Positions 48,901 to 51,900 of a stretch of DNA of 64,000 nucleotides are shown here, in pieces. Under the pieces are notes generated by a model. It was not told where the DNA came from. It did no database searches and saw nothing but the letters and a program-made list of their open reading frames with translations. Position 1 is the first letter of the stretch; each line of letters starts with the position of its first letter. Both the position numbers and the translations under genes were made by a program. Origin of the DNA: Leucoraja ocellata (lineage: Eukaryota); NCBI GenBank assembly GCA_036785375.1, contig JAWMAR010000882.1:1-64000 (forward strand). The letters run 5' to 3'.

Positions 48901-51900
48901 CTACATAACTATAAATCATCATAATCGTTTAATGCTTGCAAGTGTAGATGCTTGGATTGAGCACGGCAGCTATCATGTTGAACATTGCCTGTGAGCATTG
49001 AAGCATTTACACATGCCTCCCTCCTGTATAGACTGTGGCTACACTTTCCAAGGAGCTCAGATTCAAGGGATAACAAACAAAACAGAAAAACTGGAGCAGA
49101 AGCACTAAAATAAAGCAATTTACATCACTGGCTCATAAACCATGAGATTAGAGAGTGTAGACTCCGTGAGACATTTCACTTGGAATATCTGCAGACAGAT
49201 CTTTAACTGCAACTCATCTCATAGTCATTTGTGTTTAAGAGGGAACTGCAGATGCTGGAGAATCGAAGGTTACACAGAAAAGCTGGAGAAACTCAGCGGG
49301 TGCAGCAGCATCTATGGAGCGAAGGAAATAGGCAACGTTTCGGGCCGAAACCCTTCTTCAGACTGATCGGGGGTGGGGGTGGGTGGGGACAAGAAAGGGA
49401 AAAGGAGGAGTAGCCAGAAGGCTGGAGGGTGGGAGGAGACAGCAGGGGAGCTGAGGAAGGGGAGGAGACAGCAAGGACTAACAGAATTGGGAGAATTCGA
49501 TGTTCATGCCCCGGGGGTGTAGACTCCCCAAACGGAATATGAGGTGGCATGAACATCGAATTCTCCCAATTCTGTTAGTCCTTGCTGTCTCCTCCCCTTC
49601 CTCAGCTCCCCTGCTGTCTCCTCCCACCCTCCAGCCTTCTGGCTACTCCTCCTTTTCCCTTTCTTGTCCCCACCCACCCCCACCCCCGATCAGTCTGAAG
49701 AAGGGTTTCGGCCCGAAACGTTGCCTATTTCCTTCGCTCCATAGATGCTGCTGCACCCGCTGAGTTTCTCCAGCTTTTCTGTGTAACCTTCATCTCATAG
49801 TCAGCTGGGGCTCATTCTCACTTCCAAGTCAGAAGGTTCCACATACAGAACACAAGATGCTGAAGTAACCCAGCAGTTAGGCAGCATCTCTGGAGAACAT
49901 GGATAGGCAATGTTTCGGGTTCAATGTATATTTGCAGCTTCAGAGACTTTTGGCACAAAGATTTAGACTCGCACTCAGCACAATCCTGGAGAAGTGCTAT
50001 ACGATTGGAGGTTTCAGATGGTACATTAAATCAAGACCACACTTTGCTTTCTCAAATGGACATTATTTTAAAAAAGAACAATGGAATTATTCCTTTTGTT
50101 TTGGCTAATCTCTTTCATTCAATTAATATTTTTGATCACCAACATATTGTTGCTGCAGTAGGAACTTTCAATAAATTCCCACATTACAGAAGTGAAAACA
50201 TATCGAAAATAGAGACACAGGGAACTGCAGTGCGGGTCAGATAGCATCCGTGGAGGAAATGGACAGACAATGTTTTGGATTGGGAGCCCTCTTTCAATAC
50301 CTCAAAAATACTTCACCTAACCAGGAAAGATGGGAATTACTTTGAAATATCCTCAGAGAGACACAAAAGGTCCTATATAAATGCAAGTCTTCATTTTCAA
50401 AAATCAGGGTAGAAATCAAAAACTGATCATTGCATTCACTCAACTTCTTTTCAATAATAAACTTCACTCCATGAGCTCCCACGTATTATCCCATCCCTAT
50501 TAACATCAATTGTAAAACACACAATCAGAAAATCACAAAGAATTCTATATGTAATCCCCATACCTCTCTGGTAGAGTTTCAATCCATTTTTGATGTCCAT
50601 TTGAGAGATAATGGAGAGAAATGAATGTTTTCTTCACAATGGCAATGAATCTGACTCCTTCCTCAGAGCCAATGAGGGAACCAGTGTGAAAACTGAAACA
50701 ATATTTTTGATTAAATCAGACAAGTTGCAATGACCATGCCCTCAAACCTTCTTCAACAAAACAACCAAGTCTCTTAAGATTAAAACCACATGCAAAAAAG
50801 GATAAACAGAAATATCAGATTTAAACCACAGATCAATTAGAAGCAACTAGTTCTTAGGTTTTTCTTAATTATTTTCAAAAAAATAGTTTTATGTTGTCAT
50901 TGTGTTTCTATTATGTTTTGAATCAAGAGGACTTTGAAATGTCCTCAGAAGGTCATGAATTGCACTTTAGCATGTCATTCACTCAACTTGTTTCTAATAA
51001 TAAACACTTCCTTCAACTTCATTGCCATTGTTGCTCAGAAGGCCAACAGAACAATCCCGATTTTTATTTTACACCTTCAAAGTCCAAAAATAATTAATGG
51101 TTAATATTGGGAAAAATTAATAGTCCTCCAATACAAAACATATTGACTCAGTATGTATTATTAGTTCAGGTGACCATTTGCCTGCATGGGTGATGAGCAG
51201 ACTATTTTCAAGGGGCATCGTTGCATGATTTGCTCTTCCCCAATTTTACAGAAAAACTTGGAAACTCATTGTTTATTCTTCTTAACATGACATTACCACT
51301 TTCCAGGAACACGCCACACACTAAATTACCATAATCCCACAAGGTGCAAATGCTAGTGACAACCTTTAACAGAATTGATGTACAGAGGGTTCCACATGCA
51401 CAGCTCACTGAAAATAGCAACACAAGCAGATAAAGTGGCAACGGTACGAGGCATAAAGTATAAAAGTCAGGAAGTCATGTTGCAGCTTGACAGTAATTCG
51501 ATTAGACTGCATTTGGAGTACTGTGTGCAGTTCTAATTGTCCCATTACGGGCGAATGCGGAGGCTTTGGAGATGGTGCAAAAAAGCTTTATCAGGATGCT
51601 GCCTTGAGTAGACAGAATTAGCTACAAGGTGTGGTTGGACAAACTTGGATTGTTTTCTCTGAACCACGAGAAGCTGAGGGGAGACCTCACAAATGTTCAT
51701 TAAATTCTGAGCGATATAGTCAGAGCCTTTTTCCCAGGGTGGAAATGTCAGATACTCGAGGGGATAGGGAGTAAGTTTAATGGAGATGCACGGGGCAATT
51801 TTGTTTTTACGCACCCCGGTCGGTGGATATCTGGGACGCGAGCCAGAGGTGATGATGAAACCATATAATGTAGTGGTATTGAAAAGGCTTTTAAATAGAC

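Follow-up and report, generated by a model that had tools for sequence, protein, structure and literature searches.

Minimal hammerhead motifs in genomic stubs of a Neptune-type Penelope-like retrotransposon in Leucoraja ocellata

The flagged insertion and its parent element

The stretch of DNA considered here (the window) comprises positions 1–64000 of contig JAWMAR010000882.1 from the 3.44-Gb genome of Leucoraja ocellata (assembly GCA_036785375.1), and carries three genuine genes, UBR4 (-), EMC1 (-) and MRTO4 (+), the same host genes that a preliminary description of the sequence had recognized. It also contains many copies of a short repeat bearing the motif CTGAAGA-A-GGGT-NNNG-RCCC-GAAA-C-GT[C/T], which can be read directly at the best-preserved sites just as first described, with the core position C3 at 49695(+), 49361(-), 24268(+) and 15584(+). 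The motif belongs to a Neptune-type Penelope-like retrotransposon (PLE), whose terminal repeat carries it as a minimal hammerhead, and the copies are, with high probability, stubs, that is, 3' pieces of this element that decay neutrally without cutting host pre-mRNA. The preliminary description correctly placed the motif at its sites, but with minus-strand coordinates a few bases off; it was also right that the family occupies both strands, but its count of about 25 copies was too low, as the first round of a profile search found 39 copies and the final round 37, with no match in the reversed window sequence. Four of the 37 copies are intact, having the full set of 11 core bases, the ACGT palindrome and a helix II that pairs. 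A loose hammerhead regular expression gave seven matches in the window: the four intact copies, one at 62283 with a C-C mismatch in helix II, one at 21272 in a diverged copy with a broken helix, and one inside an MRTO4 exon, which was rejected as a chance match. An Rfam scan, uninformative for minimal motifs, gave no match to a hammerhead family at E<=10; its only matches were plant microRNA models, drawn by the long inverted repeats.

The flagged motif (49693–49724, +; C3 at 49695, helix II at 49703–49714, GUU triplet, predicted cut after 49722) is antisense to EMC1, and an identical motif lies nearby on the other strand (49332–49363, -). The two belong to the arms of a single insertion spanning 49228–49789. 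The left, long arm (49228–49545, -) holds the last 21 PLE endonuclease codons, the 3' untranslated region (UTR), the hammerhead, the short end point and a 35-nt tail, whereas the right, short arm (49546–49789, +) repeats the same sequence inverted and without the tail. The arms form an inverted repeat of 246 nt with 100% complementarity, flanked by a 14-bp target-site duplication (49214–49227 and 49790–49803). Such perfect complementarity could point to an assembly artefact, but this is scarcely credible given the target duplication, a long/short asymmetry common to 37 of 39 inverted pairs, and the contigs from two other DNA runs that span the left junction. An empty orthologous site was not found in the other DNA runs, which lacked contiguous cross-species cover of the locus.

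The parent element is preserved in a young tandem array at 8.664–8.678 Mb of contig C1, composed of 3,985-bp units that are 99.7–99.9% identical. The left arm of the flagged insertion is 97.8% identical to a full unit and encodes the endonuclease C-terminus, which bears out the Penelope origin proposed earlier. One unit has an unbroken open reading frame (ORF) of 1,234 amino acids (aa), with a long proline-rich stretch ahead of the reverse transcriptase (RT), and the next unit is frameshifted. Pfam recovers RVT_1 (E=1.4e-6) and GIY-YIG (E=0.013) in this ORF, though neither match reaches its curated cut-off; a C-x4-C-x2-C linker was read directly, and 716 of 8,000 scored proteins are relatives at E<=1e-50 with the same domains. 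A C-x(2-5)-C-xx-C linker is a mark of Neptune and Nematis PLEs (PMC8557442). The Neptune-type label is based on this linker, which is also found in Nematis (PMC8557442). A 120-nt UTR separates the ORF stop of the full element from the motif. Downstream come a short end point at ~90–96 nt (positions are counted from C3), a long one at +128 and, at +164, the next ATG. The CUGANGA, GAAA and UH parts of the core are complete in the tandem-array copy. An ORF with RT and C-terminal GIY-YIG domains, a tandem pseudo-long terminal repeat (pLTR) layout and an inverted 5'-truncated copy with a tail together place the element among the endonuclease-bearing (EN+) PLEs.

Near the array (C1 ~8,660,300–8,661,300, +) there is a 313-aa open frame, which we take to resemble a Tc1/mariner transposase. 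The tail (window 49233–49310, -, and equivalents) contains two CCAGC(A) motifs ~30 nt apart, and its conservation across subfamilies equals that of the hammerhead core. Its invariant AGATGCTG/CAGCATCT complement is a candidate protein-binding stem, but the stem is unproven, because the predicted hairpin-and-stem is no more stable than shuffles (z=-0.24) and the sequence is invariant within the genome.

Hammerhead anatomy, decay and host transcripts

Of 80 PLE loci from a scan of metagenome contigs, 41 align almost as far as the end of the ORF and 36 offer at least 150 nt downstream. The motif lies on the sense strand, 106–530 nt after the ORF, in 11 of these 36 distant loci, and on the antisense strand in none of them. 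An extra base follows A9 in all 11 distant motifs, and helix III is ACGT, AGCT or ATAT in nine of them; helix II differs in sequence and length (3–7 bp), while helix I varies with its pairing retained, mostly over 3–6 bp. Covariation was assessed in nine motifs chosen by hand for their 12-nt helix II domain (two from the window and seven from relatives): 93.7% of cells pair, 19 of them with double changes, a level reached by none of 500 shuffles, and slid controls scored far lower. Distant PLEs therefore keep the core while helices I, II and III covary, which argues, on comparative grounds, that the motif is a hammerhead selected in the transposon lineage.

The local family has the extra base after A9, the G10.1-C11.1 pair and the palindromic 15.2-16.2, and its main subfamily consensuses keep all 11 core bases together with this pair and the palindrome. 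The minimal type-I anatomy first proposed, with its additional A after A9 and its palindromic ACGT helix III, is thus upheld, as is the short helix I, which measures 2 bp followed by an A-C mismatch and falls short of the ~4–5 bp of PLE minimal hammerhead ribozymes (min-HHRs). The young subfamily carries a GUU triplet. The predicted fold of four isolated motifs is an alternative hairpin in which the probability of helix II is near 0, and unconstrained co-folding of two copies predicted duplexes and no dimeric hammerhead. With its 2-bp helix I, its GUU and this predicted hairpin, the local family is, as modelled, at the weak end of the min-HHRs. By analogy with the PLE literature, the motif may work weakly, as a dimer or a protein-assisted ribozyme, in the element's own tandem transcript.

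The same features could instead mark a catalytically dead relic, kept in this lineage because its bases double as promoter or protein-binding sequence. A downstream tail as invariant as the core would fit such a relic, as would the finding that hammerhead mutants had no effect on insertion of an anole element in vitro (PMC11167929). It nevertheless seems unlikely, although not by a wide measure: the consensuses retain the complete core, the pair and the palindrome, the GUU triplet also occurs in distant relatives with a longer helix I, and protein-assisted cleavage has been published for another PLE.

Within the genome, copies are extremely numerous. A 34-nt pattern has 25,758 exact matches (its reversed form has none), and 17,494, 25,164 and 8,968 matches were counted for three disjoint patterns that each span the 5' core, helix II and GAA. 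Profile hits number 505 in a sample of 1.004 Mb, or ~1.7 million if extrapolated to the genome, the sample consisting of 17 contigs that are not random and come to 21% from the window's own contig. The motif and most of the tail are spanned by 224 sample copies, 28 of them fully intact, giving ~28 intact motifs per Mb (~96,000 extrapolated).

These copies do not have a core better conserved than its flanks, the property expected in the preliminary description. Core columns are 0.85–0.95 conserved and invariant tail columns equally so; after matching for base and subfamily, 118 non-CpG core changes were observed against 131.6 expected (P=0.12). G12, the general base of the hammerhead (PMC6155905), is mutated in 59 of 186 copies, versus 45 of 184 for a control CpG G. 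Among the 224 copies, the loop CpG is intact in 100, C11.1-G12 in 96, the helix III CpG in 104 and the tail CpG in 116; these rates are alike, and the CTCG/CTTG/CTCA loop variation is therefore mostly methylation decay. The TTCG loop with the U-G pair marks a subfamily. The variable loop and the alternating closing pair had been read as signs of a retained stem, but the former reflects CpG decay and the U-A/U-G alternation is a one-sided difference between subfamilies. The helix II covariation looked for in the preliminary description exists between distant PLEs and is almost absent among the 224 copies, where seven of only nine pairing double changes are G-C to A-T, as two transitions predict. 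The genomic copies show no sign of selection and have likely decayed neutrally after insertion. The purifying selection on the core that would characterize a domesticated hammerhead is not seen in this pooled test, in which a rare single selected copy would not show.

Thirty-three copies lie within the three genes, 15 sense and 18 antisense, with gene limits approximated from coding ends and polyadenylation signals. Three of the four intact copies in the window are antisense: the flagged copy, a stub in a UBR4 intron (15579–15674, +; GUC) and a stub in UBR4 just downstream of the first coding exon (24260–24383, +; GUC). Only one of the 37 copies is both intact and sense to its gene, the left-arm copy at 49361 in an EMC1 intron. 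In the transcript it follows its own perfect complement, and pairing with the other arm is predicted to take up the whole copy; the 621-nt stretch containing the copy has a predicted duplex of -580 kcal/mol and a helix II pair probability of 0. No copy in the window is thus both sense to a pre-mRNA and free to fold, as a domesticated hammerhead would be, and the large family of potentially self-cleaving RNAs envisaged in three pre-mRNAs shrinks to one copy predicted to be duplexed. The intronic RNA ends expected at the cut site were also missing: read starts and ends did not pile up there in four runs from a related species with deep coverage of the motif.

Several points weigh against neutral decay without cutting. 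Without matching, the non-CpG core differs from its subfamily consensus by 6.5% and the tail by 8.0% (p=0.034), and the AAA-U part stays low after matching (33 changes observed, 48 expected). The fold predictions ignore proteins and tertiary contacts, and the RNA-end test is weak, as a pile-up needs one-fifth of the depth, copies are pooled, bulk libraries are unstranded and the species is a related one.

It is conceivable, if very improbable, that intact copies act as low-level self-cleaving RNAs in host pre-mRNAs, as trans-dimers or with protein help, and so affect host transcripts. The extrapolated number of intact motifs is large, the family is plentiful in RNA of the related species (12,686 reads among 12.9 million records), and weak cleavage by PLE hammerheads is published for dimers (PMC4209133) and in the presence of the element's protein (PMC11167929). 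Against this, the lone intact sense copy is predicted to be duplexed, G12 is unprotected, isolated motifs are predicted to form the alternative hairpin with near-zero helix II probability, helix I is 2 bp versus mostly 3–6 bp in relatives, RNA ends do not accumulate at the site in the four runs, and splicing of EMC1 at the adjacent exon is seen in the related species. Selection against sense copies could account for either the antisense bias of the intact copies (3/4) or a strand asymmetry in single-cell reads, although the numbers involved are small. This asymmetry was observed at L051:4436–4559 (L051 being C1:8664001–8673000), where reads on the strand opposite to the element prevail by ~4.5:1 in libraries of unclear direction; internal priming or a transcript orientation bias could explain it. 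The reading of the stubs as neutrally decaying, non-cutting PLE pieces is therefore preferred here, and the copies should not be annotated as host regulatory RNAs.

Other stubs in the window are further decayed. The one at 62185–62294 (-), outside the three genes, has a complete core with the C-C mismatch in helix II mentioned above. Degenerate copies lie at 14016–14151 (+; with tail, 9/11 core bases, antisense in UBR4), 55795–55878 (+; sense in MRTO4, with G12 lost and helix II and the palindrome broken) and 63620–63752 (+; 10/11 core bases, palindrome broken, outside the three genes).

How the stubs may arise

Stubs have defined ends. In the 1-Mb sample, their 3' ends lie at ~+90–96 or +123–128, the two classes expected from two internal RT start sites (PMC11167929). 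The 5' ends cluster just upstream of the hammerhead: of 53 young copies, a set whose identity filter favours short copies, 23 begin at -10..+1 and three reach more than 30 nt upstream. Genome-wide lists, read by eye, give a sharper picture. Among the first 100 listed of the 17,494 matches, all begin at -7..0, with a peak at -2 (43) followed by -3 (16), -5 (11), -4 (10), -6 (6), -1 (5), 0 (5) and -7 (4); the first 100 listed of the 25,164 matches, from a second subfamily, fall in the same interval but more broadly, over -5 to -1. Three subfamilies lose similarity at about the same 5' point. The sequence at this boundary is TCAGTC, which we take to fit the initiator consensus. An initiator-like TCACT has been noted in rotifer pLTRs (PMC3846280). 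An origin of the boundary in a 3' splice site, or in a 5' ribozyme independent of the hammerhead, was considered by inspection, which showed no shared upstream exon.

A cleaved template predicts starts at +28, which are seen in 3 of the 53 young copies. These three starts were considered as a cleavage footprint, which was rejected, as there is no +28 excess genome-wide: +28 accounts for nine of the first 100 listed of 3,288 starts at +24..+34, its neighbours for 2–15, with about six of the 100 rows unassigned (duplications, insertions or other subfamilies) and several +28 rows looking like internal deletions. The template was therefore mostly uncleaved RNA. In several copies on the same list, GAAAC and the cut site are lost through a 12-nt internal deletion between two GCC triplets, and others are perfect palindromes joined without a spacer.

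Inverted pairs are common, with 28 of 76 young copies in the sample lying in pairs. After removal of duplicates, the 1-Mb sample and 90 pattern-selected loci yielded 39 head-to-head pairs and no tail-to-tail ones; the arms are unequal, one long and one short, in 37 of the 39. The outward direction of both tails fits priming from both target strands. The window has two head-to-head pairs besides the flagged insertion, one at 8564–8772 with a long and a short arm and the 5' half of the hammerhead missing at the junction, and another at 39914–40110 with its junction within the helix II/GAAAC palindrome.

A mechanism can be proposed from these ends. The element's protein would nick the target and start reverse transcription inside the RNA at +93 or +128, and the RT would copy the uncleaved RNA through the hammerhead. 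Copying would mostly stop 0–7 nt upstream of the hammerhead, probably at the RNA 5' end near the initiator-like TCAGTC. Extension of both target strands, with one start site used on each, would yield a head-to-head insertion with a long and a short arm. An mRNA start close to the core would leave 2–3 bp of helix I, keeping the ribozyme off in the capped message, and internal priming that runs off the 5' end would produce short stubs on the order of a million. The stubs would then be a genome-wide fossil map of an mRNA start ~3 nt upstream of the core, run-off reverse transcription and priming of both strands; as a joint claim, this is a tentative proposal that falls a little short of being probable. 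If it is true, the long/short pairs would attest that a dimeric enzyme carries out double-ended priming in vivo.

Several observations count against parts of this scheme. The start-site reading draws on the distribution of ends and an initiator consensus; a C at -11 removes a copy from the patterns behind the 17,494 and 25,164 matches, and sequence upstream of the boundary is present in 8,968 young copies. RT stalling or junction microhomology (7/30 loci) could contribute to the 5' ends, the three sample starts at +28 are those predicted for a cleaved template, and self-priming at palindromes has been used to explain inverted junctions (PMC3846280).

The short copies might alternatively be a self-propagating, non-autonomous family akin to a short interspersed element (SINE), with its own internal promoter and remobilized in trans by the PLE protein. 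Stubs outnumber the copies reaching the ORF end (coverage 101 versus at most 18; 17,494 versus 8,968 in the young subfamily), have target duplications and share a 5' boundary across three subfamilies. An internal promoter is known in Drosophila Penelope (PMC2377424), and action in trans has been described for pLTR sequences (PMC3846280). The 5' ends are, however, ragged by several bases with upstream flanks that look unrelated, stub sequences match the autonomous element, and no stub-only subfamily emerged. Such a family is thus rather improbable; it is compatible with the preferred reading of the stubs, and does not exclude it.

The rest of the window has features of its own. A head-to-head arrangement places the starts of EMC1 and MRTO4 ~500 bp apart (54477–55036), and the interval contains a tandem repeat with a 33–34-nt unit (54559–54675). 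An imperfect 21-nt tandem repeat in a GC-rich stretch lies inside UBR4 (849–991). At 22458–23182 (+) there is a frameshifted fragment of a non-LTR reverse transcriptase (RVT_1, E=2.5e-13), presumably CR1/L2-like, and the broken reading frames at 62344–62849 (+), which have no significant Pfam match, may be a processed pseudogene, which we assume to resemble a tousled-like kinase. There are two further dispersed repeat families, one at 23596, 47335 and 57971, which we presume to be SINE-like, and another at 4293, 31612, 48139 and 53775, which has high depth in DNA runs.

Comparison with known systems

This kind of element is already known, as PLE min-HHRs, inverted one-tailed copies and weak, dimer-dependent cleavage have all been published. 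In the literature, which was covered in part and with Repbase and Dfam outside the search, no account of this family in cartilaginous fish or of 5' ends clustering at a hammerhead was found; the supplements of PMC4209133 and of a retrozyme preprint discussed below may list such species. As a ribozyme finding it is ordinary, in that the copies behave like decaying transposon debris. Its remaining value lies in the PLE mechanism, which is still poorly understood: because copies are so numerous, the two sites at which reverse transcription starts, its end just upstream of the hammerhead rather than at the cut site, and the assembly of inverted insertions can all be described with sharp statistics. 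Biochemical tests could use the intact young tandem copy, and the many perfect intronic hairpins expected from paired young copies would give much double-stranded RNA.

Cervera and De la Pena (2014, PMC4209133) described min-HHRs both as dispersed singles and within the Neptune, Poseidon and Xena elements of fish. The present family resembles them in its terminal-repeat location, its CUGANGA and GAAA-NN-UH core, the extra base between 9 and 10.1, the G10.1-C11.1 pair, the palindromic 15.2-16.2 and the predominance of dispersed singles from truncated elements. It differs in helix I (2 bp versus 4–5 bp), in helix II (4 bp versus 7–8 bp in schistosomes) and in a copy number of at least 51,626 (from the three disjoint patterns), against ~4,000 in coelacanth and ~9,000 in Xenopus (PMC4209133). 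A short-helix variant from D. virilis also has a 2-bp helix I (PMC4209133), and weak, dimer-dependent cleavage has been reported for minimal hammerheads (PMC6765202).

The element shares with the EN+ Neptune and Nematis PLEs its RT, C-x(2-5)-C-xx-C linker, C-terminal GIY-YIG domain and tandem units, together with inverted 5'-truncated copies, a tail at one end (30–40 bp in theirs), target duplications and an initiator-like sequence in the terminal repeat (PMC8557442; PMC3846280). Unlike in those elements, most insertions here are only 95–135 bp. In the Anolis Poseidon element PAc, two internal RT start sites likewise define the tail, and RNA-seq ends are absent at the cut site (Frangieh et al., 2024, PMC11167929); the cutting and extension of both target strands described for PAc, and the uncleaved RNA template found for it in vitro, would be further points of likeness. 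The clades differ, as does the position of the start codon: the PAc hammerhead overlaps it, whereas here the ATG follows the tail, at 164 nt from C3.

Non-LTR retrozymes are also non-coding and PLE-related, with a type-I hammerhead, and have been reported in the only cartilaginous fish sampled (bioRxiv 10.64898/2026.07.22.740005). They consist of short units in tandem, each with its own hammerhead, whereas the stubs of the window are solitary or head-to-head and never short tandems, the only tandem examined being the 4-kb coding unit. The domesticated hammerheads of amniotes, in RECK, CTCL and DTNB, are likewise type-I motifs in introns (PMC6155905), but each is found at a single locus conserved across species, whereas the copies described here are high in number and decay at background rates.

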